A DNA stretch of 62,761 nt, counting the filler, from Vermamoeba vermiformis (taxonomy: Eukaryota): NCBI GenBank assembly GCA_045837725.1. It is 4 parts of 4 records of this genome, joined end to end, with 100 filler letters (N's around TTAATTAATTAA, not from the genome) between each part and the next. Parts side by side here need not be neighbours in the genome. Positions count along the whole stretch, not along the records: positions 1 to 30,386 come from JBEWZL010000133.1; 3 more parts are not named here. One strand, given 5' to 3'. Positions 5,632 through 30,386 of the stretch are shown in pieces. Below the pieces are notes generated by a model that had not been told where the DNA came from, did not search any database, and saw only the letters and a program-made list of their open reading frames with translations. Positions within the stretch are counted from its first letter, which is position 1; each line of letters opens with the position of its first letter. Both the position numbers and the translations under genes were made by a program.

Positions 5632-8267
5632 ATGCAGAAGGTGCATATTCGGCACTTCTTCAGGCTATACGTGCCTTTAGCGTGCCCTCCGGGGTATCAA
5701 CTTCAGATGTTAACTCCGCCGGATAATCCATTCGGCTTTGTTCTTAAAGACAAGGCAACAAATCGGACGCACAATTATCACTTAGAATTATTCTGCATTG
5801 CTGATGACGAAAAGCCCTCAAGATCCTACGAAAACTGGGCGACTTGGGCAAAGCGAAGTCCGATCTGCTTTCAAACGACGGAGAATGATCAAATTGAAGG
5901 AGTATTAATTAGAATTAAAGTAAATCATGGAGTATTTGATTTTAGAAAATTAAATGAGCAACTGGCGCGGATAGCACTGAACTATTCCGTGGATGGAATT
6001 CTACAACAACGTGCAGCCTCTCCGATTATTAAAATCTTGCCTAAAAGACGAACAGCTGCAGATGAAGATGAAGGTAAGCCCTAACTAGCGTCCTAAAATA
6101 CTTAATCTGGACTTTACGTGGCGTGAATCATTAATGATTACGGATAATATTTGCATAATCGTGATTATTTACATTATATTTTATAGTATGTATTCCCATT
6201 AATTGGGAACCAAACACGGGAAGTGGCATTAACGATCCGTCATCCCTGTCGGCTAGCAGCCAAGGCCTCAATTCCGACAATTACAATCCATTCGATGTTT
6301 CTGGCTCATATTCAAGCTATGATAGCCCTGATGACCAATTGTAAGCTTGCCTAACCTTCTGTATACAAAAGATTATTTTTAACCGTTGGATTAGAAAGAC
6401 GTCTTCAGTGGTCGCCGAAACTTCTTCAAATTCAGCGAGTCCCGTGCCCGAGGATGTTAATAAGTTCTAGTAAGTTCGATAATCAATTATGCTAGTTTTG
6501 GATCTCTAACTCTTTTTTTTTAGCTCTTCGTCACCGGATGATTACGAGCAAATGCAAGGCTTTAATACCAATAACATTGATTACGCCATGCAACAACGAG
6601 CAGAGTTGCAGTACATTTCACCGCAAAATGAGAATTATATGGTACTTTACAACGGCAATGCAGAAGTCGTTGGTAACTTCAGAGCATTGAACTTCTACAA
6701 GTCATCAGACATCAATATCAAAGAGGACATCAGGCTGCTCGTTGAAGGTACGTACGAGGCATTGGCTATGGCACTTTGCACTGCCTACCATCAGCATAAT
6801 CGTGCGCGTAATTCATGACTGACACGTGTCATTTATGGTACTTCAGACCATGACTGCCGTGACACTTTGCTTCAAATCGACGGAGTAAACTACAAGTTCA
6901 AGCAAGGAGTGCATCCAGACACGAACAGACGATTTGTTGGCTACATTGCACAACAAGTGGAGAGTGTTGTTCCTGAAGCTGTTCAGCTCATTGATGGTGA
7001 GTTCCATCCAGTCAATAAGCCCTGTTAAACTAATTAACTTCATATAGGTGTGCTGCACGTTGACTATGAGTCTCTGATACCATATCTAAGCGAGTCTATC
7101 AAGCAGAACTTCAATGACATCAAGGATGTTAACGCGAAGGCAGATCGGATACAGCAAGCTATTGACAGTATGTACGAGCAGTTTGTGAAGAAAGAAGACC
7201 TCAAAACACCAGTTGCTGTCACTGAGAGCAGCAGACGAGGTACCAAGAGACCAGCTCCGAGCAAGAAGGGCCTGAGCACGCTGTGGAAGACTATAATCAT
7301 TATCAGTATTGTAGCGACGTGTGCAACAATAGGCCTCGTTACCTACTTAGTGGTAATGTCACAACATCACGATCCAGTGCCTAACACCCCGCCGAGCGTG
7401 CCTGAAATACCCCTCGAACCCGTTGGGGAAGAAAAGTCTGCTACGTTCATCGCACTGAAAGAGTTTTATGAAGCAACGAACGGACCGAACTGGAAGATAC
7501 GAGATAACTGGCTGAACACGAGCGTTACTGTATGCAAATGGTTTGGCGTCAAGTGCAAGAATTCTGCCGTTGTGGAGCTCAATTTACCTTCCAATAACTT
7601 GGTGGGAACCATCCCAGACTCTTTTTCCGAATTAGGAAATTTAACACTGCTCAATTTGACGAACAACTTACTAGAAGGATCCCTTCCCGCGGTAGTATTA
7701 GAGAACAAAGAGCTTCGAACTTTGATTTTCGGCGGAAATAAGTTCAGTGGCACGATACCGAAAGAATATATTCAAACTAGCCTCATAGTTATGGATCTCA
7801 GCAACAACGAGCTTTCGGGTACTATTCCGGATTTGATGGGCATACAATTAGCGATGGTCGAGCTGAACCTATCAAGAAACAAATTTACCGGCGTGATCCC
7901 GCAGTTTGTCATCTCGAGGCTAGATCTGAGCCACAACCGCCTCGAAGGCACGATATCTCTTTCATGGTCAACAACGCACTTGAACTTGTCTAATAATAGC
8001 TTCTATGGCAACCTCCATACCATTACGGAAATGTCGAGTTTGGTAGTGCTAGATCTGTCGTACAATAACTTCAACGACACGCTGGTGCTCAGTTCCGATC
8101 AGTTAAAAACACTAACAGTGTTTGATGTATCGCATACGAAGATCAAACACTTGGTGGAGCAAGAGCCTAGTCCGAGTCCAAACTTCAACAGATGTGACGC
8201 GAGCGGTACTCCGTTCATTTGCCCGCTGCCGAGTTGGGCAGCTAAATGTAAAGCCACCTGTAGCTAA
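5632..8267 (+). CDS. Family A gene A1: MYRF/MrfA-like membrane-tethered factor (putative DNA-binding domain, Peptidase_S74 chaperone, coiled coil, TM, LRR ectodomain)
   Basis: Spliced model. Exon 1 (5632-6073) is a beta-rich domain ending SPIIKILPKRR, then S/D/N-rich exons. Chaperone reads NFYKSSDINIKEDI/…FVGYIAQQVESVVPEAV/…VDYESLIPYL (Ser 6705-6707, Lys 6720-6722). TM is TIIIISIVATCATIGLVTYLVVM, followed by a CxWxGVxC cap and LxLxxNxLxGxIP repeats. Confidence 0.85.
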
Positions 8268-8416
8268 TTTATGTTAATAGTTTTTGCTGTAAATAATAAC
8301 GATTCACTACACACCCTTTTCAATGTGCTTGCATAAGAAATACAACTCGCGAGATCTCGGGGTGTCACCCATTTGACGTCTATCGCGACACGAAAACAGA
8401 ATCATTGTCTTCCTCC

Positions 8417-11073
8417 ATGCAGAAAGTACACGTAAGAAATTTATTTAGGGTGTACGTACCCTTAGTTTGCCCTGTTGGCCATCAAGTGGACCGACTAACA
8501 CCAAATCCGGGCAATAATCGTTTCGGTTTTTCACTCAAAGACACAGCAACAGGCCAAGTGCATGTATATCAACTGCAATTATATTGTTTAGCCGACAGAG
8601 AATATGCCGAACGCACTTATGAGGATTGGGCAACGTGGGGAAAAAGGCATCCGCTCAGTTTTCAAAAGAACCCTCAAACCGAGGAAATTGAAGGTGTAAT
8701 AATTAGAATTAAAGTCAGCCATGGAGTATTCGATTTTAGAAAAATGAAAGAGCAGCTCGTAAGAATATCAGCAATTTACTGCGTGGATGGAGCGAACAAG
8801 AATCAAGGAGTATCTGCGCTATTCAAAGTATTGCCAAAGCGAAGACATGGAAATGATTTAGATAGCGATGGCGGCGATGAGGGTAATTATTATTTTGTTT
8901 TAGCCGCCATCTCTGATGGGACCCAATTCCCATTTTAGTTTCAAACTTCGTTGTTAGGCTCAAAAGTATTTACACGTTATTATAGTTAGGCTATCAATCG
9001 ACTGGGATCCTCTTACGAGTGAACCTAAGCCCGATCAAAGCGAGGCACGTGCGGATATGGATACAACAGCGAATATTGCAAACGCATCGCACGATTATTA
9101 CACGAGCCCTTCGATAGAATCATACGCAAGCTCTACGAGTTACATAGCGTAAGCATCAATAATTTCGCTCCGCTAAGGCGTTATTAAAACTCCTGTGTTA
9201 CTTAGGCCTGGTTCCAATACAAATGTAGTAATATCGAATAGCCCTCAGCAAGAACTATTATCTGGGCATTAGTAAGTTAATTACCAGTACCAACGCTTTC
9301 AATTTAAGGCTTGCTAACCCGCCGCATCTAGTTCCGACTACGAATTGCTAATGTTTCCTAACCCAAATCTACCAACCTTGCAACAACATTATTCTCCTTA
9401 CGAAGATATACCACAGCAGGTGCAGAACGAGAATTACATGGTACTTTACAACGGCAACGCCGAGGTGATCGGAAACTTCAGAGCATTGAACTTCTACAAG
9501 TCATCAGACATCAATATCAAAGAGGACATCAGGCTACTTGTTGAAGGTACTTAGGAAGCGTTAGCTATAGCACTTTACGCTTCCTACCGTCAGCATAATC
9601 GTGCATGTAACACATAACTGACACGTGTCATTTCTCGACTTCAGATCACGATTGCCGTGACACTTTGCTAAAGATCGACGGTGTTGACTACAAGTTCAAG
9701 CAAGAAGTGCATCCAGACACGAACAGACGATTTGTTGGCTACATTGCACAACAAGTGGAGAGTGTGGTTCCCGAGGCTGTTCAGCTCATTGATGGTGAGT
9801 TCCATCGAGCCTACTGTGGTAAATTAGTATATTGAACTGATGATGATATTTTCTAGGTGTGCTTCATGTCGATTATGAAGCTTTACTACCATATCTGAGT
9901 GAATCGGTTCGTGCCAATTACAACGACATTCGAAACATTAAGACAGACAAAACGAAGTTCCATCAAACTTTTGATTCGATATACGAAGAGTTCATCCAAA
10001 AAGAAAAGACGAAGAAAGCCAAGAAGGAGCCTGTGAAGACAAAAGAGAACGAATCTGGCGAATCCGGTCCAGGATTCAGCACGATCTGGAAAGTTATCAT
10101 CTTGATAGCCGGTCTCGCCATAGTAGGTGTTGGTGCGATGATTGCAGTCATGGCCATTCCTGGACATATTACTCATGTTCCTACGGACCCATTGACGCCT
10201 GCCCACTTGAGTCCTGCTGAACCTCAAGATCCGCTGATCGAGCGCGTCTTCAAAGACCTTTATCTCTCTACAAGTGGCCAGAATTGGAGACATAATATTG
10301 GCTGGCTCAACAAATCTACACCTATTTGCACGTGGTACGGCGTGAGCTGCACAGGCAAATCTGTTACGAAGCTAGCATTGCAAGAAAATGGTCTCAGCGG
10401 CACAATTTCATCGAGCTTGTTCGAATTAACAACGCTAATTGAAGTGGATTTATCTGGCAATCATATCAGCGGAACTCTGTCATCGGACATTCCTGCATTG
10501 ACACAATTGCAAGTGCTTCAACTTCAACAAAATGACTTGACCGGCACGATTCCTGAAGAACTCGCGCACATGGCTTCACTTAGTACCCTCCGACTGGACA
10601 ACAATAGATTCAGTGGAACCATTCCTGCGAGCATTGTCAGCGCACCACAGTTGCACGAAGTTAAGCTTGCAAACAATACACTTACAGGCACTATTCCCTT
10701 CGTGAACTTCACGCATCTCGACGTTAGCAATAACCTCCTTGAGGGCTCGTTACCTCAGTTTAGTGCCGTAACGACTAACCTCAACATTGAGAACAATAAG
10801 CTCGTGGGCGATGTCGCGAACCTGAGCAACTTGACTGGCATTGTTTCGCTGCTCATGGGCTCGAACAACTTGACTGGCACATTAAGCTTCAGCGAAACAC
10901 AGCTGCGCACGATTAAAGTGCTTCGTATGGCCCACACGTCGATCAGCAGCATTGAACAGACCCAATATGTACCGGGCAGACCGTCTTTCAAGTCTTGTGA
11001 CATGTCGCACGTGCCTTTGAAATGTCCTTTGCCAAATTGGGCTATTTCTAGCTGTAATGCCAATTGTAAGTAG
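8417..11073 (+). CDS. Family A gene A2 (same architecture, N-domain class shared with A1)
   Basis: MQKVHVRNLFRVYVPL…KVLPKRR; SSDINIKEDI with Ser at 9504-9506; GYIAQQVE exon; TM VIILIAGLAIVGVGAMIAVMAI; CTWYGVSC cap, LRRs, Cys-rich C-cap. Confidence 0.85.
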
Positions 11074-11336
11074 AAGAGTGTAAAATAGCGTGTATAAAAT
11101 TGTATGATTAGGCCTTGGGTTGGATCAGAACTGAATTAAACCTTGTTTGGAGTAATTGGAAGTTATTCGCTATACAGCGCTGTATGGAGGTTACTGCGTA
11201 CTTAGATCTGTTGGTCGAACCCTGATGAATTGGCTCCTCGGAAATGACAGGGAGGCAATTCATTTTAGCTTCGAAAATCGACATTTCTTCTCTGTAGAGC
11301 GTTGGTCGCCAACAACACTAATGCAAATAAGGCAGC

Positions 11337-14042
11337 ATGGAGTCTAAGTAAGTTCGTTTTCAAAGCGGAAAATTAACCAGATGCATTAAAATTAATTATC
11401 AATTTTGAATCAGCTACAATTTAAGTATTAGCGTCAAATTATCGAGTAATAATTATACAGAAATTTGGTTCTAACAAAAAATCTGGTTTTAATTGCCAGA
11501 TGTGCAAAATCTTCTGTATTCGCCTTGCAATTTCGTTATTAATTATTGAACAAGGTCATTGCGCTATGTTAGGGTCGAGAAAGTACAGAGTCCTGGAAAT
11601 AAAGAGGAGCGGAACAGACGGATCCTTCAATTCGCTCAACCCGTTCCCCAAAACAAACAATTGCCGTCGCTCGCGTGCTATTGGTTCGTAACAACAGAAG
11701 TGTTGGAAGATATTCGATACAACGACAAATTATTTGCTTGGAAAGGGCAAACTGAAGTCGAAGATTCCAATGGCATCGTGCACTACCTCTATCGAGTCGA
11801 TTTTAAAGCCAAAGAGCGCGGAGCAATTGGTTTTGAATTTACAGACGGTACAATAGTGCGATTAGAATGCTTGCCACCACTTGATCTATTATTAGAGAAT
11901 ATTGGTGTTGCAAAATCACGCGAGGTAAATTGGATCTTTTGTTGAAACTTTTAACGAACTAACGTTTGTCTGTCAGGAGCCATTCGATCTGAAAGATCTC
12001 CTCAGCAAGCTACCTCCAAAGACCATAATTGTCATCAACACACTGCTGTTGGTCCCTGACGAACCTGACTTTATTCAAATGGCTGACACGGCACTGACGA
12101 CCGTTGGTTTCAAGAAAGAAGTTAGCTCGCACAATCGTCAGTACCTCTACAGCCATACAGACTTGGTCAACACCAAGCGACACGTGCTCTTGATTCCTTT
12201 TGGCAACGAGAATAGATATCTCCGAATCGACGATTACCTGCCGCAAGCCAGTGAAGTCCTGTTGCTAATTGACAACAAAGGTGAACAGCAACCGAGCGAG
12301 TTGATGGCCATCAAGCAAGTGAATAACGTCGCCACTATTGTCAACAATATCTTGGTCAACAACACGTGGGAGTTCGTGACCAAGACAGCCAACTTTGGTC
12401 AGTTGGTGCTGAACTACGAGCCGCTGGAGCCGTCAGTCAAGACACTCTTTTCGATCTCAAAACTGCGTGGTATTCTCGGTGGCGCGAGCTGTCAGAACGC
12501 CACCATCCAAGAGCTACAAGGGCCGTTCAACAGGTTCCTCATTGAATGGACTCTGAACTCCGAGCGGGTTGTCAGACATACCCCAGAAGCGATCTATCTC
12601 TGCTTCAAGTTCGAACCAGACGTTGTTCAAGCATTGTCCGAGTACGCTGCCATCATCCTTGCTGCACTCGACATCGAATATGAATATACGCCCGTTGTGG
12701 TCCATGGCAGTGTCCTCGTGTACATCCGTTGCCCATCGTATCTTCCGTGGTACATTCTGCAGCGCAAACAAGACATCTTCGATACGCTCAGCAAATACGA
12801 ACTGACAGAGATCTACGAGTGTTTTATCAGCGATGTTGAAGTGTCAATGAAGCGACCCGGCAATGAAAAGTTCGTCGAAGAGTTGAGATTTTTGAAGGAA
12901 CTCATGCTTGAAGATGACGTGCTAGACCAGCCAACAGCAACAAGGTAAGGCGATACGACAAGCTATTAAATGTTTTAACTCGTTATGTACGCAGATTCAA
13001 GGTTGTACATCTACCAACCATGCCTCCCACCGTCGACAAACTTTCAAAGGAGCGGCAACAATCGCTTGAGGCAAAGTATAATGCTATGAAAGTCTTCGAT
13101 AACAAGTGGACCAAGACACTCGAAGAGTGCTACAACAGCGATCAACTGCGTCAACAATTGTTCAATTTCAAGACTGACAAGGTAAGTCATGACACCTATT
13201 CGTTATTCTCCTCATTTTAACCATCAATTTAGAACGCAAAAATCGCAATTCGTGTGTTCATCGCATCAGCCTCAGCAGGACTGGCAACGAACGTCGCCAA
13301 GTTGATGCGTCCTTTCAGAGGCAAATCAATCATCGATGGTGTGCACTCTGGTCTTCAGATCGCCAATACAGTAAGTGAATAACCGGCATTTCTTCCATAG
13401 TACTCATTTGTATGCTAGATCGTCGAGTGGAATCAAAGTGGTATCGTGCACATCGGCGAACTGAAACCCACGAGTGCCACGGCTGTTCTGTTCGACATTC
13501 AAGGCTCAGTCAAGTTTGATTTTACGGAAGAAATTGCTCAGAAGGTAAACAATATTCTAGCTAGCTAAGGTCATGATAGTTTGCTAACTACTCCTACTTG
13601 ATCAGATGATCAACTTCATTCAACTATGGAACATCAAGTACCGCTATTCATCTGACGAGTTAAACTCTCATCGCTTTGTGCGAGACTTCTTGCAATACAC
13701 GATGAACGTGTCACTTCTCGATTGCTTCAAAGGACCATTGGGTACGTCTATATGTGATGACTTGACATGAGCTAATACACGTCTCTAGGCTCATACATGG
13801 ACTACGTGATGAGAACAGGCGACGCGACTCCACGACTGTTTTCACCCAAGAACGGAGTGATGGTGTTCAAGACACACGAAGAGCTCGAAAAAGTAGATCG
13901 AAACCAACTGAGTGACGATGAGAACAAACTGTTGAAGATCTTCCATCGTGGCTTTCAGTTGCAAGAAGCAGCGAATGGCAAAGATGTGAGTAGCTGCTGT
14001 TACGGACTTCCCACGAATGGTTTGGAGATCTTGAACCAATGA
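11337..14042 (+). CDS. Family B gene B2: N-domain + degenerate Ras-like fold + alpha/beta domain + papain-like domain with Cys->Ser
   Basis: ATG 11337 with a gtaagt donor splices to 11555 (MESKSLRYVRVEK). Includes ORFs 11559-11945 and 12049-12948. The 3' exons encode GVHSGLQI (His 13344-13346), WN, NSHRFVRDFL (TCT 13666-13668) and FHRGFQL…LEILNQ*. Confidence 0.75.
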
Positions 14043-14452: not shown

Positions 14453-17400
14453 ATGTCAGATCGAAATATTTACCCGGCAGATTTACCCCAGCGCAATTAC
14501 GCGTGAGTAGAATTCCATTTTTCTTTAATAAAATATTGACAACAAAATTAGGGCGAAGCGTCCTCGGGAGGATTCAGTCGAAGAAAAGCAGATTCGGGTC
14601 CCATCCGTCCAAACGTAAGTGTTGGCACAAAGAAAGCACTTTTATAACTTAATTTTAAGGAATCGGATACGTTGTACACGAGTCAAAGACATTGGAACTC
14701 GACTGTCACCAGATCTAAAACTCCAAAGGGCCGTTGAAATATCGCAGCTTCCTCAAGGCAATTCTCTTACTGCACGAGCAATTTATTGGTTCGTTACTAC
14801 TGAACCGGTGTTGCTGATAATAGAAGACACAAACTTGTTTGTTTGGAAGGAGAGTCATACTTTGACCGCTTCCAATGGCACAACATACTACTTGAATCAA
14901 ATTGACTTTCACAAAAATAAGCGAGGAACCCTTCGCTTTAGGTTTCCTGATGAGACCGAAGACACTATCTACTGCTTGTCAACTCACCCAAACAAAAACA
15001 AACGAGCCAAACTCTCTCCCGCAAACAACAACGACATGCAGCTCGACGATGAGTCTCAAACAGCAACAAACTACAGTGCACAACCAACGCCGTTCAATGT
15101 TGAATATAATGATTTGATAAACCAGCTTGGAAGCAACACCATCTCGCCCAATAGTAGCATCAGTCCTTCGGGTAGTGGGGAGATGGACTTTATATACGAA
15201 GTTGGTGTGCCGCAAGTACCAACTTCGCTACAGGGCCAAGCCTCGCCCCAAACTCCGTCACAAGTACAAACTCCGTTTCAAGTCCAGACCCCGCCGCAAG
15301 TCCTTCCAAATGGCATGCAAGTTGCTTCAACTGAAGCACTCATTGTTAACTTCCTTCTGCTGGTCCCGGACAACAACGAGTGCATCCAAATGGCGCACTC
15401 AACGCTCGTTAATTGTGGGTTCACCGAAGAAGTCAGCTCGACAACTCAACAGCGCCTGTATAGTCTGAAAAAGACTAACAACACCATACGACACGTGCTG
15501 CTATTTCCATATGAAAAAGCTGACAGATTGTACGTCTTGGATGATTACTTGCCTGCAACAAGCGAAGTCATTTTGCTACTCGAAAATCAAGACAAGCAAG
15601 AAGACCCTCTCATGGCCATCTCTCACATTGCCAACATTGGCACCAATTGCGCATGGGAGTTTGTTGTCAAAGGGGCTGATTTTAGACCCATAGAGCTCAA
15701 CTACTCAACACTAGTGCAATCAGTGAAGTTAGTAGTATCAATCGAGCAACTTCGCGAAGTTATTGTTGGTGGTGCTTCATGGAGAAAAGGTCTTGGTGCC
15801 GCTCAGCTGGCTGATCCGTTCAAGAATTTCTTCTTGCAGTGGACGTTGGCACGTGTCGCCAAACGCGTTGTTCGGAACATTTTTCTTTGTTTCAAGTTCG
15901 AGCCTAAAGGAGTCATAGCCAGAACAATTGACTATGCCGCTAAATCCTTGGCTGCACTTGGAATAGAGTATGACTTGGAAGATGCGTCAGTAGTCAACGG
16001 CAGTGTGCTCGTCTATGTTCGATGCCCAGCGTATGTTCTTTGGTACGTTCTGCAACGCAAAAAGGACATCCTTCAAACCCTGAAAGAAGACGGATTGACC
16101 GAGATCTACGAGTGTTTCATTAGCGATGTTGAAACGTCAATGAAGCGAGCTGGAAACGAGCAGTTCATTGAAGAATTGGAGCACTTGAAAGAACAAATGA
16201 TTTGCGATGACATTGCTGAACAACCGACGCCTAACAAGTATGTACCACTGCGTTTTCGAAGAAAACTAACTGACGTTTGCCAAAGATTTAGACTGGTAAC
16301 TCTACCAAACTTGCCGTTGATAACCAGGTCGAGTTCGCACGTGGCAGCGGCAGCTGCTAAAACTTTAGCGCCGCCAGGGGACGTTGAACCAATGATCATC
16401 GATGATCTGCCAATAGAATATCCGCCGACTTTAGATAAATTGCCGGCAAACAAACGAAAAGTACTGGAAGAGAAAAGCGCCGAACTGAAGAATTTTGATA
16501 ATAAGTGGAATAAGACGCTTGAAGAGTGCTACAACAGCGATCAACTGCGTCAACAATTGTTCAACTTCAAGACTGACAAGGTAAGTCATGATGACAACTA
16601 TTCGTTATTCTCCTCATTTTAACCATCGATTTAGAATGCCAAAATCGCAGTTCGTGTGTTCATCGCATCAGCATCAGCAGGATTGGCAACGAACGTCGCC
16701 AAGCTGATGCGTCCTTTCAGAGGCAAATCAATCATCGATGGTGTGCACTCTGGTCTTCAGATCGCCAATACAGTAAGTGACACATGTCAACGTTTAGTTC
16801 TCGTTCAGTCTTGTTAATCACTCGTTTGTTTAGATCATCGAATGGAATCAAAGTGGTATCGTGCACATTGGCGAGCTCAAACATGGCAATGCAGTGGCTG
16901 TTTTGTTCGATATTCAAGACTCCGTCAAGTTTGACTTCTCTGAAGAGACGGCACAAAAAGTAAGTCACCCTTTCATTTTAAGTTGTTATACACCATTGTT
17001 AACACTACTTGCGCTCTTTTTAGATGATCAGCTTCATTCAAAAATGGAACGTAGAGTACCGCTATTCGTCTGACGAGTTCAACTCTCATCGCTTTGTGCG
17101 AGACTTCTTGCAATACACGATGGACGTGTCACTTCTCGATCGCTTCAAAGGACCATTGGGTACGTCTAAAGCTTATTTAGAATGACTGGCCATGTGCTAA
17201 TACACTTCTCTAGGCTCTTACATGGACTATGTGATGAGAACAGGTGACGCGACTCCACGACTGTTTTCACCCAAGAACGGAGTGATGGTGTTCAAGACAC
17301 ATGAAGAGCTCGAAGAAGCGGATCGTGCCCTTCGAAACCAACTGAGTGACGACGAGAACAAACTGTTGAAGATCTTCCATCGTGGCTTTCAGTTGCAAGA

Positions 17401-17500
17401 AGCAGCGAATGGCAAAGATGTGAGTAGCTGTTGTTATGGACTTCCCACGAATGGTTTGGAGATCTTGAATGACAGCGGCAAACCAACAAAGTATAATTAA
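14453..17500 (+). CDS. Family B gene B3: same architecture as B2, with a longer S/P/Q/T-rich linker
   Basis: ATG 14453; introns after 14502 and at 14615-14659 lead in frame into ORF 14619-16622. Basic motifs AKRPR and KNKRAKLSP. The 3' exons are nearly identical to B2 (GVHSGLQI; NSHRF with TCT at 17084-17086). Confidence 0.78.
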
Positions 17501-17563
17501 AATCTAATTTACTTCTATTACAAAAAATTAAATGGTTAAAGACATCGAAAGGATGTCACAGTG

Positions 17564-20500
17564 CTACTTCGTTTTGTGTCTTTTTTTGGTGTTCTTTTCT
17601 TTGGCGTCATGTTTTCTCTTCTTGGTCTTGATCTCAGAGCTGTTACCAATCTCATCAGAGTCAAATTCAATTAACTCTTCTTCTTTTGAGTCAAGGATTG
17701 GAATTGAAGCTTTCTCTTTTTTTCTTTCCTTCTTAGTAGTAGAAGTTTGGGCAATTTGATCTGAAATGACTTTTAGTGCTTCCTGTCTTGATTTGTAATC
17801 ACCCTTCATGGCAATGATGAATTTGGTGACATGTTCTTCTGTCAATACATCTTCATAGCCTCGTTCATCAAGGGTGTCATTCACCTGCTTGGTTATATCT
17901 TTTATCTTCATTTCAGCATTATTCTTTTCAGGGATTGCTAGTTGAATAAAGTGTCTAATGATTAAGTCCTCAAGATCTGGTTCATTGAATAAGTCAAAGG
18001 CATGTTGTAATGCATGTGAGCGATTGAAGGGATTATTGACATAGTTCATTGCTAGTGCAGCAGTTCCAAAAATTGACTAAATTGTAAATCAGAATCAAAT
18101 AGAAAGATCATTGGAAAACTTTTTACCTTGCTAAAGTGAATTGTTAGCATTTGGCGAACCCCAGATTTACCTCGCTCTTTGCCTTGGTTTGCTAGTGGAA
18201 AAGCTCGACGCAACCCTGTAATAACATTCTAATATTGTTAGTACTAACTTATAAAATGAAAAAACCTACTTGTATTGATTGTTGAGGCAAGCTAACTTTA
18301 CTGGTATTAGGAATGTCCCCATAGTTCTTAATTTGATTGACCACAAACTTTTTTTCTTCAAAACTCCAAACCTTTGGATGCTTTGCAACAAAGTGATTCC
18401 ACTCCATCTTATCTCTAGATAATTTAATGGCAGTGGCATTGATGAAACTCATCTCAAAGTATGAATGTAATATCTGTCGCTGTAACTTGCTGTTGCCAAA
18501 AGTTATTAATAAGTTAATAAATTGATATTGTCATACCATGATGACAAGCTAGGCTGAACAGCACATTGTAATATTGAGATGTGAGCTGCTTGAAAGTAGC
18601 TCTTCAACTTTAAGAAGTCATATTGATAATCAATTTCTCCGTTGTGCTTTTTAGAATTTGCTTTGAAGTAGTCTTGCATTTTGAGTACCAAACTGAAACC
18701 TTGTTCACCTTTATCAAGTCCAGCAATTCTTCTTAAGAGAGTATCAATTCGTTCAAGGATCTTCTCTTTAATTATTGCAGCACAGCTGTTGATAAATTGA
18801 GGAAGTATTTCTTTCAGATATGCATTTCTGTAGTTGATTCTAGAAATCTTTCTGTTCATGTATTGATCTTTTTGTTCAATTAGTTTTTTGATATCTGCAT
18901 CAAAAGTGACTTGTAAATTGGTCTTCTCTACAGCTACAACACTTGATAATCGTTCAAACTGCTTAATATTTGACTTCATCTCCACAATGAACTTATTCTT
19001 TTCAAATTGAATATATTGCTGCTTAATTTTGTTTTGAACATCATTGCCCTCGTCATTGTTCTTGTCACTGTTATTGTCATTGTTATTATTGTCATTGTGA
19101 TTACAGTGATCATTGTCATTGTCATCAATGTAATTGTTATTGTCAGTGTACTTGTAAATGTAATTGTCATCATTATTATCACTGTCCTTGTCATTGTTGC
19201 TGTAATCATCATTGTCATTGTTGTTATTATTATCATTGTGGTTATGGTGATCATTGTCATCAACGTAATTGTTGTTGTCATTGTAATGGTAAATATCATT
19301 GTAAATGTCAATGTAAGTGTAATTGTCATCATCATTATCACTGTCCATGTAATTATTGTTGTCATTGTCGTTATGGCTTTCAAAAAATTTTGCTGAAATG
19401 CCATTGATAATATCAAGCAAGTGAATTTCATCAATTGCAACAAAATCGTCAACATTTGGATGATCTTTTTCTTTGAGAATCAGCTTTCCAATGTTGTTCA
19501 GCATTGAATCAACTTCCTTCCACATTGGTCGTAGCACAATATCAGAAAGGGAATAGCATGAAAATCCTCCCTTTCCAAGGCAGATCCGGTTTATAAATTC
19601 TCTACATCGTTGCTCTGGGGCCTTGTGCTCAAACACTTTTGTTTGCTCAATTATCTGTCACAGTCAATATTTTGTAAAACTAATCACTTCAACTTACATA
19701 TTGTTCAAGCTTTGCCATTGAACATTGACTCTTGGCAGCCTCAATGTCAGCTGCAATGCGGGCTGTAACTTTGGCACTGGTATAGTGGTACCATTGTCTC
19801 AATTGAAATTGAAATTCTGGATAATGTTTGTACATCTTTGACTGAAGTTGAGCAGCAACTGCTTGAAAGTAAGTGCAATCAAGCTTTTGGCTGACATCTG
19901 ACATCTACCATGAATGGTTAATATATATATGCCAACACTAAATAATTAATTGCTTACAAATTGAATGCAGCTATCAATCTTTGAATAGAAGGATTTTGCT
20001 CTTTCAAGTTCATTCTTGGTTTGGTCTTGGAAAAGCATTTGAGCAAGTGAGTTCATGAAAAAATCAACTCCTTTTTCATTTCCACTCAGCTGGATGCCAT
20101 ACTTCTTTGTATTGAATAGAAGATGAGTCAAAGCAAATGGACTTGTGTAGATCTCGGGTCCTTGTGGTTGATAGTTTGCCTGAAATAGGAGCTGTCCAGC
20201 TCCATGAAGGCTTGAAAGCTATCAAAATGACATTAGAACTTTAATTAGAAATAATTGCTTACTGGTTCAGTTAAAGTCATTGACTCGTTGAAGTACCATT
20301 TAGATAATTTTTGGGATAGCTTAATTGCATGATCTTTGATATTTGCTGGAAATTGTTTTACACATGTCTGAATAATAAACTGCCAAAAGATTTCTTTGAG
20401 TCTGTTTTGCATCTTTGTTGCATGTTCTTTCATAATGCTCAGCATTTCTCCTTTGTTTTTTGCCTTTACATCTATGTTGTTGAAAACAATCGTGCACTGT

Positions 20501-23385: not shown

Positions 23386-23682
23386 ATGGATCTCGCATTG
23401 GAAGAAAATGGTCTCAGCGGCACAATTTCTTCGAGCTTGTTCGACATAACGACGCTAATTGAAGTGGATTTATCTGGCAATCATATCAGCGGAACTCTAT
23501 CATCGGACATTACTGCATTGACACAATTGCAAGTGCTTCAACTTCAACGAAATGACTCGACTAGCACGATTCCTGAAGAACTCGTACACACGGCTTCACC
23601 TAGTACCCTCCGGCCGGATGACCTTTCTGCAAGTGGCGATAGTCTGTTGAGCAGTGTCAGCGCGGCCTAGTGGCACGAAGTG
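23386..23682 (+). pseudogene. Orphan LRR fragment closely related to the A2 ectodomain
   Basis: Near-identical to about 10372-10661 (ENGLSGTISSSLF…IEVDLSGNHISGTLSSDI…LTQLQVLQLQ). Later repeats are decayed, with a stop at 23668-23670 and no upstream exons. Confidence 0.85.
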
Positions 23683-23900
23683 CTACTTACACGAGCTCGC
23701 GACTTGCTCAGTGGAAGAAGAGGTGCGTTATTGAAGTGCTAAAGCTTGGCGTACTCATAAATCATAGCGAACAGATGAAGGATTTCGCATTAACGCGCGC
23801 CTTTGAGCTTCGGCACGTGCCCGCCGCCGAAAAGTAGACGAAGAGTGCACAGAAACTTAAATTTGAATACTTTGAACGCAGTAACTCAACTAGTCATTTT

Positions 23901-25231: not shown

Positions 25232-27632
25232 ATGGCACACAGTGCACGTATTCGTAACCTATTCGATCTTTTCGTTCCTCTCAACGGTCCTGCTAATCTG
25301 GAAGCGGTTCCTTTACTTGGAACGAATTTTGGATTTGCGTTGGGTCTCAAAAACAACGATGAAAATTGCCTTCAATACCACATTCAACTAGCTTTTAAAC
25401 ATCCGAGAACAGGTGAAGACGTTGCGTTGACCAACTGCTTCGAGTGGGCGAAGAGAAACGCAATTCGATTTCAACGCTCGGAGGAAACACAAGAAGTCGA
25501 GGGAATAATAGTTAAGATTAAATTACCGCCCAAAGTATTCGATTTCAGAAAGCATAGAACACAACAAACGCGAATTCAAGTGAATGAAATCAAAAATGGT
25601 CAGATCATCAAACAAGCATTCAGCAACATCGTCCAAATATTACCTAAAAGTCGGACCTCGCATACAGACTCTACGGGTAAGCGATTTAACATTTTTAAGA
25701 ATTTTTTAAGATAAAGATACGTTTAATTAGCTCGTCTGCGGAATCTGCGCTAACGATTCACTTTAGTACTTATACCAGTTTTATGGATGCAAGACGTTAT
25801 TCCATTGAGCCCTGTTTCACCGCTGAACCTTTCTTCGTATGTGGCGGAAAGTCCGGCGGACGAGATCGAGAACCTAGGAGACATCGACCCACTGCTGCCC
25901 ACGTAAGTTTCTTCTGACCGTGAATTCCTTACCTAACGTTTATGTGTAGCCCGTATAATTACGATGCAGAGCTACAGTACCTGTCGAACAACAATACCGG
26001 CGAGCAATACATGGTACTTTACAACGGCAACGCAGAAGTCGTTGGTAACTTCAGAGCATTGAACTTCTACAAGTCATCAGACATCAATATCAAAGAGGAC
26101 ATCAGGCTGCTCGTTGAAGGTACGTACGGTGCAGGACAAGCACTCTGCACGAGCTGCTACTTCGTGTACCAATTGACTAACACGTGTCATATCTCTCCTT
26201 CAGACCGCGATTGCCGTGACACGTTGCTTCAAATCGACGGAGTAAACTACAAGTTCAAGCAAGGAGTGCATCCAGACACGAACAGACGATTTGTTGGCTA
26301 CATTGCACAACAAGTGGAGAGTGTTGTTCCTGAAGCTGTTCAGCTCATTGATGGTAAGTTCTATTGTCTCGTTTATACTCATATCGACTATGAAACTAAT
26401 ACAGAGCATACTTAGGTATTCTTCATGTCGACTATGAGTCTCTGATTCCATATCTGAGCGAGTCAGTTCGTGCCAACTATGGTGACATCAACGATCTTCG
26501 CTCAAAGACAGAACGAATTCAACGAACTATTGACGAGATGTACGAGCAATTTATCCGTAAGACAGAGTCTCCTCAGCAAACTTCGACGTCATCAAAGCCT
26601 CAACGTGCATCACGAGTGAAAAAACTTGTTCTGCTTAGCGTCATTTCGGTTACAGTATTGGTCGCTATACTTGCCACGTTGGCCTTCATTGGTGTGATCC
26701 CTATCCAAAACTTTGGTGGCTCGCAAGACGACACACCACCAAGCCCAGACTCGAAGTTTCCACCAGAGTTCAGCGTCGCTTGGAAAGATTTATATAGTTC
26801 AACGAATGGTGACACGTGGCTGAGAAAAGACAATTGGCTCAACGAACAAATATCAATTTGCGAGTGGTACGGCGTGAAGTGCATCGAACAACAGCGTTAC
26901 TTGAACGGAACTGCGGTGACATATAATTTCATTCACATCTCATTGGACAACAACAACTTGACTGGCACATTGCCCTCGTCATTGAACAATATCACGTGGC
27001 TTCAAAGTCTCGCTCTGCGGAACAACTCGTTGACTGGAACCATCCCTGAAGAATTCGCGAAGATTGAAAACTTGGAAGTTCTAAGATTGTCGAGCAACAG
27101 ATTGACGGGAACGTTGCCTAATATGGCTAAATTTTCCAAGTTGATAGTGCTGGATCTGAACAGAAATCAGTTCTACGGCACATTCCCGAAAGATTTCTTC
27201 GACAACGATCACATCAATGAAGTCTACTTGGCAAACAATCAGATCGAAGGCCCCATACCAGGGCATAGCCGACTAAAAGTGCTGGATCTGAGTTCAAACC
27301 GCATCAACGGATCTCTTCCCTTCTTAAGCGTTGCATTGGCATACCTCGATTTATCCAACAATAGGATTGAAGGCGAGGTCTTAGCGTCAACTGCAAACGC
27401 GATCCATCTCAACTTGGCGAACAACAGATTCAGCGGTCATTTTACAATGTCAGCCGAACAATTCATCAAAATGAGGTACCTTAATATTTCAAATAATATG
27501 CTTCGTACTTGGCAAGACGAGTACCCTCGCGTGCCTGAGAACGGGTTCCGATGCGACGCAAGTAATAATCAGTTTGCTTGTCCGTTGGGATCGGTTTATA
27601 TCGAACATATTTGTCGTGCTACTTGTAAATAG
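25232..27632 (+). CDS. Family A gene A3 (second N-domain class, S74 chaperone, TM, LRR ectodomain)
   Basis: MAHSARIRNLFDLFVPL…VFDFRK…SNIVQILPK; SSDINIKEDI with Ser at 26077-26079; TM LVLLSVISVTVLVAILATLAFIGVI; CEWYGVKC cap, LRRs, C-cap ending CRATCK*. Confidence 0.85.
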
Positions 27633-27869
27633 GATCATAATTAAATAGTGTAGATATTAGGCTCCTGCTGATTTAAAATTCAGCTAGATCAAGACTTACT
27701 TACCGACGAAATAGCTGAATAGATTAACGATCAGGTTCGCCAAAGTACTTTAAAATAATTCCGGCCTTTTTCAAGTAAAATGATGCAAAATCTGATAGGA
27801 CTGGCTATTTGCCCGGAAGGGAATCAACTGGCACTCGTCACTTTTTTACTATGTATTGATCATCAACAA

Positions 27870-30386
27870 ATGGCACACACCGCTCGCATTCGGAACATAT
27901 TTGATTTGTATATTCCTCTAAGTGGTCCCGCGAATCTCGAATCTGTTCCGTTGTTGGGGAAGAATTTTGGATTTGCTTTGGCCGAGAAAAATAACGATGA
28001 AAGCAGCCTACAGTACCATATAACACTTGTTTATAAACAGCCTCAAACTAACGAAGAAGTTTCATTGCCAAACTGCTTCGTTTGGGCGAAGAGAAAACCA
28101 ATAAGATTTCAACGCTCTGAGGAAACACAAGAAGTTGAAGGAATAGTCGTAAGAATTAAGCTTCCAGCCAAATTGTTCGATTTTCGAAGATACAAAGCCC
28201 GAGAAATACGAATTCAAGTGAATGAAATCAAAAATGGCCAGATCATAAAACAAGCATTCAGCAACATCGTCCAAATATTACCAATAAATCGCCAAGGGAG
28301 CTCCGACTCAACGGGTAAGCAATTGGATCAAGTTAAAAATATTTTCGGCAGGCGTACGCCAAAAAATACGAAAATATGTATTTTCTCGTGGATTTACTCA
28401 CCGGTTTATTGTTAAGCTTTTATCCCCGTGTTTTGGGTACCAGATTTCGTTCCGACATCACCTTTAAGCCAAGTTTCGCCCAATCTTTCGGCTTATGTTG
28501 AAGAAAGTCCACACGAGTCTTTTTATGTTGACTACAACCAAGCGAGCTATTCTAACGAAGACTCGGGGCAAGGTTATTCGCAGACCAATCAGATGTATCC
28601 CTACGATCAGTCAAAGTAAGTTTTCACATCCGTTTTTTACGGCTATTAACTGCTTCGTAGCGCTATCGAATTGCAATATTTGCCCAAGAACAACAACAAC
28701 GATACAGAGCTACAGTATATAGCGAGCAACAACAATGGCGAGCAATACATGGTACTTTACAACGGCAATGCAGAAGTCGTTGGAAACTTCAGAGCATTGA
28801 ACTTCTACAAGTCATCAGACATCAATATCAAAGAGGACATTAGGCTGCTCGTTGAAGGTACGTAGGATGTGCTGGATAGTACATGTTGAAGCTCTACCAG
28901 ACACATGGGATCGCGTGTAACATTTGACTGACACGCGTCATTTATGTACTTTAGATCATGACTGCCGCAATACTCTACTTCAAATCGACGGTGTCAAGTA
29001 CAAGTTCAAGCAAGGAGTGCATCCAGACACGAACAGACGATTTGTTGGCTACATTGCACAACAAGTGGAGAGTGTTGTTCCTGAAGCTGTTCAGCTCATC
29101 GATGGCGAGTTCTATTGTCTCATTTATGCTCATATTGACTATCAAACTAATTGCGGTCACACTTAGGTATTCTTCACGTTGACTATGAGTCTCTGATACC
29201 ATATCTGAGCGAGTCAGTTCGTGCCAATTATGGTGACATCAGTGATCTTCGATCGAAAACAGATCGAATCCAACGAACTATTGACGAGATGTACGAGCAA
29301 TTTCTGCAAAAAGACAACGCTGCTAAGCAATACTCAACGCCGTCACGCAATAATAATAACTATCAACGCGGATCACGAACGAAAAAGATCGTGCTCCTTG
29401 CAGTTAGCTGTGTAACGATTCTAGCCACCGTCCTCATGGCACTGGCATTCGCTGGAGTTATTCCGCTCCACAGCGCCGAGCAAGATGATTTTAAAATTCC
29501 GCCGGAGTTCGTTACGGCTATGAAAGATTTTTATGTTGCAACAAACGGTGACACGTGGCTGAGAAAAGACAATTGGCTCAACGAACAAATATCGATCTGC
29601 GAGTGGTACGGCGTTAAATGCGAGAACACGTGGCATTATTTCGACGAGCTTACGAACGGCACTATGCCACGCGAGTTGTGGACCAACATTCACATTTGGC
29701 TGGACAACAATAACTTGACTGGCACATTGCCATCGTCACTGAACAAAATCACGTGGCTTAGTAGTCTTGTACTGCGGAACAACTCGTTGACTGGCACTAT
29801 AACTGACAAATTTGGACAGCTTGACAGATTGACAGAGCTAAGGCTTGCGGACAACAGTCTCACGGGATCACTTCCAAATATAGTAAAATATCCTGAACTG
29901 CGCGTGCTCGATCTGAGCAGAAACAAATTCTACGGCACACTTCCCGAACATTTTCTCAGTGGCGAATGGATTGCGGAAGTGAACTTGGCAAACAATCAGA
30001 TCGACGGAACAATTCCGGACTGTCGAATGATTGACACGCTGGATCTGAGTTCAAATCGATTCAATGGAACACTGCCGTACTTTGGATTCGGTCTAAAGTA
30101 CCTCAATTTGGCGAACAATATGCTGACAGGCGACTCATTTGCCGCGACCAGATCCGACTCATTAGTTCATCTCGATTTGTCCAATAATCAGCTCAACGGA
30201 GATTTCCATCTTTTACCGGTTGCATTCAACCAAATGGTCTACCTTGATATTTCAAACAATCGATTTCGGAAGTGGGATGAGGTCACTGTTTTACCAGAAA
30301 ATCTGGCTGTTTGTTCAGCGAGTAACAACCAGTTTGTATGTCCGTTAGGATCTGATTGGATGCAGAACAAATGCTTTGCGACGTGT
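27870..30386 (+). CDS. Family A gene A4 (close paralogue of A3), cut by the contig end just before the expected stop
   Basis: MAHTARIRNIFDLYIPL; SSDINIKEDI with Ser at 28815-28817; GC donor at 29105 where paralogues have GT; TM IVLLAVSCVTILATVLMALAFAGVI; LRRs ending CFATC at the gap. Confidence 0.85.

Follow-up and report, generated by a model that had tools for sequence, protein, structure and literature searches.

Four tandem Vermamoeba genes encode LRR proteins predicted to carry a MYRF-like, self-cleaving membrane tether

Four intact, intron-bearing genes (A1, A2, A3 and A4) neighbour one another on the + strand of amoeba-type DNA from Vermamoeba vermiformis (the window, i.e. the whole stretch of 62,761 nucleotides that was analysed), and most likely encode MYRF-like, self-cleaving tethered precursors that would release a trimeric cytosolic fragment. 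The cytosolic half would consist of a basic β-sandwich, an acidic linker, a short β-helix, a Peptidase_S74 chaperone domain (S74/ICA) and a trimeric coiled coil, and the outside half would be a plant-type LRR solenoid. Gene structure, domain composition, the intact Ser-Lys dyad and the topology signals are established in this analysis, and we infer that the chain is cut, that the N-fragment is released, enters the nucleus and binds DNA, and any link to a ligand. The reading as a whole, i.e. self-cleaving type II LRR proteins whose freed N-domain trimer would reach the nucleus and DNA and whose ectodomains would be paralog-specific, lies in our view just on the probable side. The gene models and one related fragment are as follows:

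5632-8267, + strand: A1, six exons (5632-6073, 6187-6340, 6395-6469, 6524-6747, 6847-6996, 7048-8267), 754 aa; gene model and end-to-end alignment
8417-11073, + strand: A2, six exons (8417-8882, 8986-9148, 9206-9271, 9332-9546, 9645-9794, 9857-11073), 758 aa; gene model, architecture as A1
25232-27632, + strand: A3, five exons (25232-25676, 25767-25902, 25950-26119, 26204-26353, 26416-27632), 705 aa; gene model, architecture as A1
27870-30386+, + strand: A4, five exons (27870-28314, 28417-28615, 28661-28857, 28955-29104, 29167-30386), at least 737 aa read; gene model, architecture as A1
23392-23715, + strand: isolated A2-like LRR fragment, 72% identity to A2 residues 526-631 (tblastn)

The introns are 45-113 nt long with canonical GT..AG borders, the single exception being the last A4 intron (GC..AG), and the frame is preserved over all introns in all four models. 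The last codons and the stop codon of A4 are unseen because its 3' end enters the masked N run from 30387. A tblastn search of the whole window with A1 and A2 as queries returned exactly four copies and the one A2-like LRR fragment, near which the same search found no further gene parts and which is probably a pseudogene remnant. dN/dS is 0.04-0.41 for all domains of A1-A4 with unsaturated dS, and the genes are under purifying selection. Judged by these ratios and the end-to-end family alignment, the pattern is not due to chance, and the best explanation is that A1-A4 are tandem paralogs, all functional, belonging to a large gene family of amoebozoans (Vermamoeba-type).

The sequence-only reading had taken each gene to encode a single protein, which is borne out at transcript level. 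Over their entire length, A1-A4 can be aligned with full-length proteins of the family found elsewhere (A1 1-754 with P0005 1-754 and with P0013 1-764), three V. vermiformis Trinity ORFs marked 'complete' (P0012, P0013, P0015) share the layout, and complete Trinity ORFs as well as contigs of 2.2-3.0 kb encode full family proteins of 706-781 aa. In the comparison with reads and contigs, which covered A1 and A2, contigs of run X1 from a close relative (95-99% alike, 28 of 30 bins covered) exhibit intron-less joints at all five A1 introns and, among the joints listed, at three of the five A2 introns; X1 is presumably RNA-derived, solely on account of these joints. Raw RNA reads X13-X15 from a relative (90-95% alike) match only the conserved S74 part. 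As full V. vermiformis transcripts have the same end-to-end architecture, each gene encodes one protein rather than mis-joined genes, and the architecture is expressed as one transcript. PF13884 also co-occurs with LRRs, being found in 25 of 28 matches to the S74 piece, 23 of which have LRR families in addition. Prokaryote-style calls in public data split the exons into small proteins (e.g. P0030, P0043, P0056), in keeping with an annotation artefact in which the N-domain, S74 and LRR exons are separate neighbouring genes, but this reading is contradicted by the intron-less joints, the complete ORFs and contigs and the preserved frames, and is extremely improbable. All parts that had been proposed for the four copies, from the N-domain to the LRRs, were found:

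5632-6073, + strand: A1 exon 1, basic all-β N-domain (orphan), ending in LPKRR
8417-8882, 25232-25676 and 27870-28314, + strand: N-domain exons of A2, A3 and A4
6187-6635 (introns included), + strand: acidic Ser/Thr-rich linker of A1, exons 2-3 and start of exon 4, net charge -14
6636-7060, + strand: A1 β-helix stub (YMVLYNGNAEVVGNFRALNFYK), SDINIK and S74/ICA domain (Pfam PF13884), interrupted by introns 6748-6846 and 6997-7047
6705-6722 (A1), 9504-9521 (A2), 26077-26094 (A3) and 28815-28832 (A4), + strand: SDINIK (motif search)
7061-7292, + strand: coiled coil of A1 with a basic juxtamembrane segment (RRGTKRPAPSKK), predicted heptad-spaced trimer contacts in the P0013 equivalent
7293-7355 (A1), 10096-10158 (A2), 26628-26690 (A3) and 29388-29450 (A4), + strand: single TM helix (KD19)
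7356-8267, + strand: A1 ectodomain with LRRNT-type cap CKWFGVKC, plant-type LRRs and 4-Cys C-terminal cap
7533-7556 (A1), 10327-10350 (A2), 26859-26882 (A3) and 29598-29621 (A4), + strand: CxWxGVxC cap

The S74 domain is genuine, as had been suspected from its dyad. The two S74-bearing pieces tested score 40.5 and 44.0 bits with Pfam Peptidase_S74 (cut-off 22), and the overall range is 38-44 bits; in the transcript proteins, the match covers profile positions 1-57/58 and begins at the Ser. The Ser-x4-Lys dyad is invariant (18/18 family proteins), and its residues align with SSDRRIK in 6f45, a fibre of phage T5 (E 3e-4), as well as with 7dc3, the ICA domain of MYRF (E 0.066). Modelling of the trimer, which had been suggested as a check, predicts that the S74 part forms a homotrimer: ipSAE is 0.91 vs 0.17 for the best of three controls. 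In the calibration of the method, 21 of 30 homo-pairs but none of the 23 single chains reached this ipSAE mark. The score, obtained without the family alignment, may reflect the predictor's memory of solved ICA trimers, which the prediction resembles. At least 94% of the contacts agree between trimer runs, with pLDDT of at least 86. The predicted interface of P0013 is heptad-spaced and extends from the ICA domain almost as far as the TM helix; in A1 the 20 residues preceding the TM helix carry a charge of +7.

Each protein contains one TM segment (KD19 maximum 2.3-2.9), and no N-terminal hydrophobic segment or signal peptide was found in A1-A4 (maximum KD19 < 1.0). The charge is 0 to +7 ahead of the TM helix and -1 to -3 behind it. 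The ~310 ectodomain residues contain 4-7 N-x-S/T sequons vs 2 in 370-432 cytosolic residues, and the conserved Cys caps are confined to the C-terminal side. A1-A4 are thus predicted to be type II single-pass membrane proteins (N-in/C-out), in agreement with the proposed MYRF-like topology, i.e. a cytosolic N-terminus, the ICA domain just upstream of the TM helix and the C-terminus outside. Pfam identifies LRR_1, LRR_8 and LRR_4 in the two last-exon pieces tested, LRRNT_2 being sub-threshold, and the best PDB sequence matches of the P0013 ectodomain are plant GSO1 (E 5.7e-62) and FLS2 (E 1.3e-56). Six ectodomain Cys residues are found at conserved positions in A1-A3, and A4 has the same six plus one extra.

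The N-domain, expected to be β-rich and of approximately 140 aa, is present in all four genes as a basic all-β domain of 145 aa with a net charge of +5 to +9, and the linkers of A2, A3 and A4 have net charges of -16, -10 and -11, respectively. Its family comprises 52 true matches among 1.84 billion representative sequences, with no sequence relative outside the family; no Pfam family scored above its cut-off for the three N-domain pieces tested, and no PDB chain matched the profile at E <= 10. The AF2 model is confident (pLDDT 90.7, pTM 0.83), and its best structural match is the EBF1 DNA-binding domain (3mln_A, Z 8.4, rmsd 3.6, 128/147 residues), a marginal, commonplace level, as a best Z of 7-8 is usual even when a model has no true match. 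In PDB and BFVD, Foldseek gave no match at E <= 1e-3, the best rows being IgV domains with TM-scores of ~0.3. Among the 50 structural matches listed, 15 are Ig-fold transcription-factor domains, including Ndt80 (Z 5.3) and the MYRF DBD (Z 5.0). N-domains are net positive in 51 of 52 sequences (median +7), and 39 of 52 have a basic cluster of the PK[KR]R type at their end, which is absent from A3 and A4, the A3 tail being degenerate (LPKSR).

The proposed role of the released fragment as a transcription factor is therefore weakly supported: the basic charge, the PK[KR]R cluster and EBF1 as best match would fit it, whereas the orphan sequence, the marginal Z and the lack of the cluster in A3 and A4 argue against it, and we consider this role plausible, with slightly less than an even chance. 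Alternatively, the N-fragment might be a cytosolic effector or adaptor, i.e. a generic Ig-like β-sandwich that binds protein, lipid or RNA instead of DNA. No sequence tie to any DNA-binding family, the IgV rows, the missing NLS-like cluster of A3 and A4 and the similar Z of β-sandwiches that do not bind DNA (S-layer SlaA 7.8, transglutaminase N-domains 7.1-7.3) are consistent with such a role, but the EBF1 alignment is both the longest and the top-scoring one, Ig-fold transcription-factor domains recur among the listed matches, and nearly all N-domains are basic with an acidic linker next to them. A basic domain followed by an acidic linker is the typical layout of a DNA-binding domain and its activation region. 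We regard an effector role as less likely than not, though by no means remote.

In the mechanism we favour, three chains would come together via ICA domain and coiled coil, and the Ser-Lys dyad would then cut directly N-terminal to the SDINIK serine, in the manner of MYRF, MrfA and the tailspikes of phages. A soluble trimer of N-domains and acidic linkers would be freed, ICA-TM-LRR remaining in the membrane, and the N-domain trimer would probably enter the nucleus and bind DNA; the strongly diverged LRR ectodomains may confer on each paralog its own extracellular specificity. If S74 were a trimerisation or folding module only, the N-domain would stay as cytosolic signalling domain of a trimeric LRR receptor. 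The predicted trimer does form from uncleaved chains, but the dyad is invariant and aligned with the catalytic residues of ICA domains of known structure, and trimerisation alone would not need such conservation, making a non-cutting S74 domain very unlikely. Cleavage might also occur automatically in the ER, as for MrfA, and give two independent products, one a soluble trimer in the cytosol and the other an LRR trimer at the surface that would act as adhesin or receptor, with release not controlled by the ectodomain and any regulation occurring later or not at all. This is a minority possibility that would fit the interface from ICA domain to near the TM helix, by which trimerisation needs no ligand, the S74 regions, which are almost identical among paralogs while the LRRs are divergent, and Dictyostelium MrfA, whose autoproteolysis is reported to be rapid and constitutive in the ER (PMC3828593). 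However, cleavage of C. elegans MYRF is timed and reportedly needs a surface LRR-TM partner (PMC8099431), a precedent for an ICA tether being controlled on its ectodomain side, and all full-length members seen combine N-domain, ICA domain and LRR ectodomain, suggesting that the halves work together. Given the predicted trimeric coiled coil beside the membrane and the constitutive MrfA cleavage, cleavage of A1-A4 could be ligand-independent, and a putative gating by ligand is unlikely.

Animal MYRF and Dictyostelium MrfA are membrane-tethered transcription factors released by ICA/Peptidase_S74 (PMC3828593, PMC3742443). A1-A4 share with them a modelled cytosolic N-terminal β-sandwich, a β-helix stub and an ICA domain that bears the Ser-x4-Lys dyad and immediately precedes the only TM helix, the N-in/C-out topology and a predicted homotrimer. 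Nevertheless, they fall outside the MYRF family, as they have neither an Ndt80/PhoG domain by sequence (Ndt80 and the MYRF DBD match structurally at only Z 5.0-5.3) nor the MRF C-terminal domains; instead, they have an orphan N-domain of ~145 aa and a plant-type LRR solenoid, and their S74 domain is nearer by sequence to the phage T5 fibre than to MYRF. C. elegans PAN-1, an LRR-TM protein, binds MYRF via extracellular regions and is required for its surface localisation and nuclear release, according to PMC8099431 and PMC12803276. An LRR ectodomain is thus paired with an ICA-tethered factor in both systems, functional coupling being known from these sources for PAN-1/MYRF, but two proteins act in trans there, whereas LRR and tether form one chain in A1-A4, and the A1-A4 LRRs belong to the plant-specific class and bear an LRRNT_2 cap.

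With phage tailspike and fibre chaperones (K1F endosialidase, T5 pb1 fibre 6f45) A1-A4 share PF13884, the aligned dyad and the conserved G[YF]IAQ..E...PE.V box; the phage domain is C-terminal, soluble and discarded once the fibre has folded, whereas S74 of A1-A4 is internal, with a coiled coil, the TM helix and the large ectodomain coming after it. Plant LRR receptors (GSO1, FLS2, BRI1, PEPR1 ectodomains) have the same CxWxGVxC N-cap and single-pass layout, but A1-A4 have the opposite orientation, with C-terminal LRRs and no signal peptide (type II), contain no kinase domain (Pfam) and carry a predicted self-cleaving tether as output module. According to its model, the N-domain resembles EBF/COE and other Ig-fold (p53-like) transcription-factor domains in being a basic β-sandwich, but sequence identity to EBF is 7-8%, and the structural match lies within the range common for unrelated folds. 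Moreover, the EBF DNA-binding domain carries a zinc knuckle, whereas the 52 N-domain sequences contain no conserved Cys/His pattern fit for one and no (near-)invariant Cys/His column.

In line with the initial impression that this architecture may be undescribed, our literature search found no description of MYRF-type proteins with an LRR ectodomain. If the reading proposed here is true, A1-A4 would provide a direct route from the cell surface to the nucleus, with a plant-like sensor outside and a phage-type self-cutting domain inside.

The window is eukaryotic in character, with a G+C content of ~0.42 and short GT..AG introns, and between 5.6 and 30.4 kb of its + strand one series of protein pieces, read as stop-to-stop ORFs, recurs four times. 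Exon models were built automatically and then corrected by comparing the paralogs around every junction. The repeated series and the four resulting models, A1-A4, bear out the proposal of the sequence-only reading that four copies of one architecture are present, i.e. an N-terminal domain (N-domain), an acidic linker, a Peptidase_S74 intramolecular chaperone (ICA) domain, a coiled coil, a transmembrane segment (TM) and a C-terminal LRR ectodomain.

Exon models of the four paralogous genes, in positions of the window
A1: 5632-6073, 6187-6340, 6395-6469, 6524-6747, 6847-6996, 7048-8267; + strand; 754 aa
A2: 8417-8882, 8986-9148, 9206-9271, 9332-9546, 9645-9794, 9857-11073; + strand; 758 aa
A3: 25232-25676, 25767-25902, 25950-26119, 26204-26353, 26416-27632; + strand; 705 aa
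A4: 27870-28314, 28417-28615, 28661-28857, 28955-29104, 29167-30386; + strand; 737 aa read

The introns of A1-A4 are 45-113 nt long and of the GT..AG type, the sole exception being the last intron of A4 (29105-29166), which has GC..AG borders (donor/acceptor GCGAGT..TTAG) in an otherwise intact frame and is either a GC-AG intron or the product of a recent donor mutation. The 3' end of A4 runs into an N block from 30387 that hides its last codons and stop; this block (30387-30486), like those at 51907-52006 and 56041-56140, consists of two 44-base N runs with 12 bases between them. Searching the window by tblastn with A1 and A2 returned only A1-A4 and an isolated A2-like LRR fragment. The latter, at 23392-23715, is 72% identical to LRR residues 526-631 of A2, lacks the remaining gene parts and is probably a pseudogene remnant.

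Between A2 and A3 lies a second tandem pair of paralogous genes on the + strand (11550-14042 and 14619-17500), with large ORFs at 11929-12948 and 14619-16622, neither of which matches a Pfam family, and with common C-terminal pieces at 13776-14042 and 17201-17500. On the - strand, an ORF at 18506-19657 carries a long Asn/Asp-rich low-complexity tract (repeats of the N-D-N-N-N-Y type) and no Pfam family. Further along, a 580-aa + strand ORF at 49936-51678 combines a DDE_1 endonuclease domain (E 6.5e-9) with a ZZ zinc finger (E 3.4e-5); it probably encodes a transposase of the pogo/Tigger type or a domesticated version of one. A sub-threshold match to CfaA_B_C, a Dictyostelium-type counting-factor-associated family, at 52160-52972 on the - strand (E 1.2e-4, 22.6 bits, cut-off 28.6) is a weak hint consistent with amoebozoan origin.

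N-domain, S74 and LRR exons are, as far as sequence data show, parts of one protein. Logan contigs of X1, a run from a close relative, share 95-99% identity with the window and span 28 of the 30 bins of 5600-11100; that X1 is RNA is the tool's guess, and no run containing the stretch is on record as RNA. In these contigs an intron-less joint occurs at each of the five predicted A1 introns, i.e. 6071>6185 (cut +2), 6340>6395, 6466>6524, 6747>6870 and 6998>7062, the last three with a few letters replaced, as expected for a diverged strain or a paralog, and likewise at three out of five A2 introns (8873>8984, 9148>9206, 9271>9332). Three further joints, 5947>9438, 6730>9643 and 6998>9887, were rejected as transcripts, being cross-mapping between conserved paralog parts. 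Raw RNA-seq runs of a relative (X13-X15; 90-95% alike, picked by species label) are uninformative on the expression of the A locus, since their reads come from the relative and fall only on the conserved S74 exons.

The same family is found elsewhere. With the S74 piece of A3 as query, 28 of 111 candidate proteins matched, none with a UniRef source or an informative name; 25 of the 28 contain PF13884 (Peptidase_S74), 23 of them LRR families as well, and three of the 28, P0012, P0013 and P0015, are Trinity ORFs from Vermamoeba vermiformis that are marked complete. Several family forms of 706-781 aa lie on contigs of 2.2-3.0 kb, and exon-sized pieces of such forms on contigs of 0.4-0.66 Mb. A1-A4 align end to end with family proteins at 34-39% identity, e.g. 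A1 1-754 with 1-754 of P0005 and with 1-764 of P0013. The joints, the complete Trinity ORFs and these alignments favour a single chain over the separate transcripts that would have undone the proposed architecture.

Judged from its sequence, the Peptidase_S74 domain of the A genes is genuine. PF13884 (cut-off 22 bits) scores 40.5 and 44.0 bits in window pieces and 38.1-43.2 bits in all four full-length family proteins searched, and in intron-free family proteins the match covers profile positions 1-57 of 58, its first residue being exactly the dyad Ser of S-D-I-N-I-K. This motif is preceded by Y-M-V-L-Y-N-G-N-A-E-V-V-G-N-F-R-A-L-N-F-Y-K. Among PDB sequences, the S74 region of P0013 matches the phage T5 fibre 6f45 (E 3e-4), with S-D-R-R-I-K under S-D-I-N-I-K, and the ICA domain of MYRF, 7dc3 (E 0.066), with SDINIK aligned to (A)DLRAK. 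In the latter alignment, which reaches upstream into the beta-helix, the Lys matches and the Ser position is occupied by Ala in the crystallised chain. The dyad Ser and Lys, five residues apart, are invariant in 18/18 full-length family proteins, as are ~35 other positions of the domain. Profile scores, alignments and invariance thus agree with the assignment of this motif as the S74 Ser-Lys dyad.

Three copies of P0013 268-420 gave a predicted trimer with an ipSAE of 0.91, whereas the best of three controls reached 0.17; at least 94% of contacts were shared between runs, and pLDDT was at least 86. The prediction did not draw on the family alignment, and the ipSAE mark had been calibrated with two copies; in that calibration 21 of 30 solved homo-pairs attain it, against none of 23 single chains. 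The modelling proposed in the sequence-only reading thus predicts a homotrimer, although the pass may reflect memory and indicate likeness only, because ICA trimers have already been solved. Within the predicted interface heptad spacing carries on over P0013 residues 371-410, which points to a trimeric coiled coil in the stretch from the ICA domain to the membrane.

The N-domain, encoded by exon 1, is an orphan family without a detectable sequence relative. No Pfam family matched it, A3 giving just two sub-threshold chance hits. A search of 1.84 billion representatives with a profile built from seven N-domains yielded 54 matches at E <= 1e-3, 48 of them at E <= 1e-10. Two long matches, P0108 and P0122, were rejected as unrelated repeat proteins, and the true count is 52/54; these are mostly exon-sized calls of the same family (120-240 aa), with a few fragments of 62-119 aa and two longer calls of 264-325 aa. 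The profile found no PDB chain at E <= 10, the best feature score in the ESM Atlas (0.86) lay under the 0.9 level and gave no lead, and among 5823 longer candidate proteins only two matched, both known S74+LRR proteins, in what is, owing to word crowding, a weak test for the presence of the domain in other architectures. Conserved motifs of the domain are H-V-R-N-x-F, F-G-F, W-A-K-R-x-P, G-x-F-D-F-R-K and L-P-K-[KR]-R.

AlphaFold2 models of the N-domain reached a pLDDT of 79 with seven sequences and a pLDDT of 90.7 (pTM 0.83) with 52, the latter model being an eleven-strand beta-sandwich. At E <= 1e-3 Foldseek found nothing in the PDB for either model, nor in BFVD for the better one. In a structure search independent of Foldseek the DNA-binding domain of EBF1 ranked first for both models (for the better one 3mln_A, Z 8.4, rmsd 3.6, 128/147 residues aligned), a likeness that is a lead and not a finding, since according to the tool's stated background best Z values of 7-8 are common for models without a real match. 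Next came unrelated beta-sandwiches, namely S-layer SlaA (Z 7.8) and transglutaminase N-domains (Z 7.1-7.3). Ig-fold transcription-factor domains make up 15 of the 50 structure matches listed: EBF1 (two), RBPJ, VeA, VosA, CP2c, Cep-1, Ndt80 (Z 5.3), p53 (three), Rel/NF-kB (three) and the MYRF DNA-binding domain (DBD; Z 5.0). From the strand order of the model we infer that the best-conserved loops, W-A-K-R and F-D-F-R-K, would share one end of the sandwich.

Net charge is positive in 51 of the 52 N-domains (median +7), and 39 of them terminate in a PK[KR]R-type cluster that is similar to a classical nuclear localisation signal; A3 (LPKSR) and A4 (LPINR) lack this cluster. Basic charge and cluster are in support of a putative nucleic-acid binder. 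The linker that follows comprises 66-119 residues with a net charge of -10 to -16, is Ser/Thr-rich and almost devoid of basic residues, a composition that fits an acidic activation region and is equally typical of any disordered spacer. The earlier suggestion that the released fragment is a transcription factor is plausible but weakly supported: the basic N-domains and the NLS-like cluster speak for it, whereas the N-domain is a sequence orphan, the EBF1 score is near background and two of the window's own genes are without the cluster.

A single hydrophobic segment (KD19 2.3-2.9) is present in each protein, 130-140 residues past the dyad Ser, and A1-A4 have neither a signal peptide nor an N-terminal hydrophobic segment (KD19 below 1.0). 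Net charge is 0 to +7 in the 20 residues before the TM and -1 to -3 after it, and N-glycosylation sequons number 4-7 in the ~310 C-terminal residues versus 2 on the N-terminal side of the TM, which comprises 370-432 residues. The C-terminal part contains LRR families, six conserved Cys and a C-x-W-x-G-V-x-C cap, whose C..W.G..C motif is invariant in 18/18 family proteins; LRRNT_2 scores 25.6 bits in the family protein P0069 (cut-off 20.7) and a sub-threshold 19.3 bits in A1. Among PDB sequences, the best matches of the P0013 ectodomain are the plant receptors GSO1 (5.7e-62) and FLS2 (1.3e-56). Hydropathy, sequons and Cys cap agree with the description of one TM, no signal peptide and a C-terminal LRR region, and the sequence features support an N-in/C-out (type II) topology that places the LRR outside.

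Among eukaryotic factors freed from membranes by a phage-type self-cleaving domain, only MYRF and MrfA have, to our knowledge, been well studied so far. The A proteins share with them, as read from sequence, an ICA domain followed by a single TM and a cytosolic N-terminus. Unlike MYRF and MrfA, they have an LRR solenoid at the lumenal end and a small beta-sandwich at the N-terminal end; Pfam gave no Ndt80 match in the window N-domains (E <= 0.1) or in four full-length family proteins (E <= 0.01), the structural Z being only 5.3 for Ndt80 and 5.0 for the MYRF DBD, and found no MRF C-terminal domains, only LRR families lying C-terminal of the TM. Thus, the A genes may work like MYRF, yet by domain content they are not members of the MYRF family. 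Nor are they, by the same measure, plant-type RLKs or RLPs. They resemble plant LRR-RLKs/RLPs in an ectodomain with an LRRNT_2-type paired-Cys cap and plant-specific LRRs, but differ in that the LRR follows the TM, in reverse orientation and with no signal peptide; moreover, Pfam found no kinase family in the window pieces or in four full-length family proteins.

No description of a combination of S74 and LRR was found in open-access text, in line with the novelty claimed from the sequence, although supplementary domain tables might list it. The open-access papers listed on PF13884 in eukaryotes do not concern the A-type family, and none was found on autoproteolytic membrane-tethered transcription factors with LRRs. 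Open-access papers found to join the chaperone of endosialidase with LRR are only those on PAN-1/MYRF, a C. elegans pair in which an LRR-TM protein acts with ICA-tethered MYRF, and titles or abstract openings of open-access papers that mention Vermamoeba along with LRRs and transmembrane proteins held nothing relevant. The main text of a 2026 survey of membrane-bound transcription regulators names neither LRR nor S74, and reports only proteins with Ndt80 and 'chaperone of endosialidase' in four Amoebozoa, among other species (PMC13294678).

The paralogs differ unevenly along their length. Amino-acid identity is 86-97% in the beta-helix and S74 domain; the N-domain shows 31-73% and the LRR region 31-58%. 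Wherever dS is measurable, dN/dS is 0.04-0.41, and all four A genes are therefore under purifying selection; in the LRR region, checked for diversifying selection, synonymous sites are saturated in most pairs. pS is 0.20-0.50 in the S74 core (A1 6636-7060 and equivalents) versus 0.48-0.98, mostly saturated, elsewhere, and the intron splitting the S74 domain can be aligned across all four genes. The low synonymous divergence of the core suggests homogenisation by gene conversion or constraint at the nucleotide level, and such near-identical S74 cores could allow mixed trimers between paralogs.

This intron also holds a 14-nt element, CTGACACGTGTCAT, at 6819-6832, 9618-9631, 26177-26190 and 28928-28941, its last base preceding the 3' splice site by 13-16 nt in A1-A4; it is absent elsewhere in the window. 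The element contains the palindrome TGACACGTGTCA with a CACGTG core. Counting palindromic sites on both strands, there are 6 matches versus 0.44 expected, and 6 or more occurred in 0/100 shuffles. Part of the element may be a branch point (CTGAC/CTAAC).

How the A proteins might work is suggested by analogy with phage ICA domains, MYRF and MrfA (PMC3742443, PMC3742440, PMC5436001, PMC3828593). Three chains would come together and the dyad would cut before the Ser of SDINIK; this would free a soluble trimer of N-domain and linker into the cytosol, while the part comprising ICA domain, coiled coil, TM and LRR would remain in the membrane. On this analogy self-cleavage probably occurs. That the freed fragment would be a nuclear DNA-binding factor we regard as possible and propose tentatively.

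Whether the ectodomain has a say in the cut is a separate matter. According to the one-component reading, a bacterial, viral or self cue bound by the LRR would control assembly or unmasking of the cytosolic ICA trimer, which would cut itself and send an EBF-like, DNA-binding trimeric fragment to the nucleus with no kinase relay. In favour of gating, the A-type family does look like the PAN-1/MYRF pair fused into a single chain, a likeness that does not imply relatedness of the LRR domains. However, the coiled coil suggests that trimers form free of ligand, and self-cleavage of MrfA is reported to be constitutive and to take place in the ER (PMC3828593). We consider gating of the cut by ectodomain ligands unlikely, and the complete route from LRR ligand to nucleus is equally improbable.

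Even with constitutive cleavage, the family defines a new orphan domain with 52 true clusters at 50% identity and exemplifies the use of plant-type LRR ectodomains in Amoebozoa, in the opposite membrane orientation. If cleavage does respond to the ectodomain, the A proteins would be a minimal eukaryotic signalling path, with receptor, protease and effector in a single chain, and would offer a simple system in which the gating of ICA cleavage can be studied. If the one-component reading is true, they would be the cis-fused counterpart of the nematode PAN-1/MYRF pair, and dozens of diverged paralogs, each with its own LRR and N-domain, would be parallel lines from surface to genome in free-living amoebae. 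Vermamoeba hosts giant viruses as well as Legionella-like bacteria, and a large, diversified family of surface LRR proteins is thus a natural candidate for microbe sensing.
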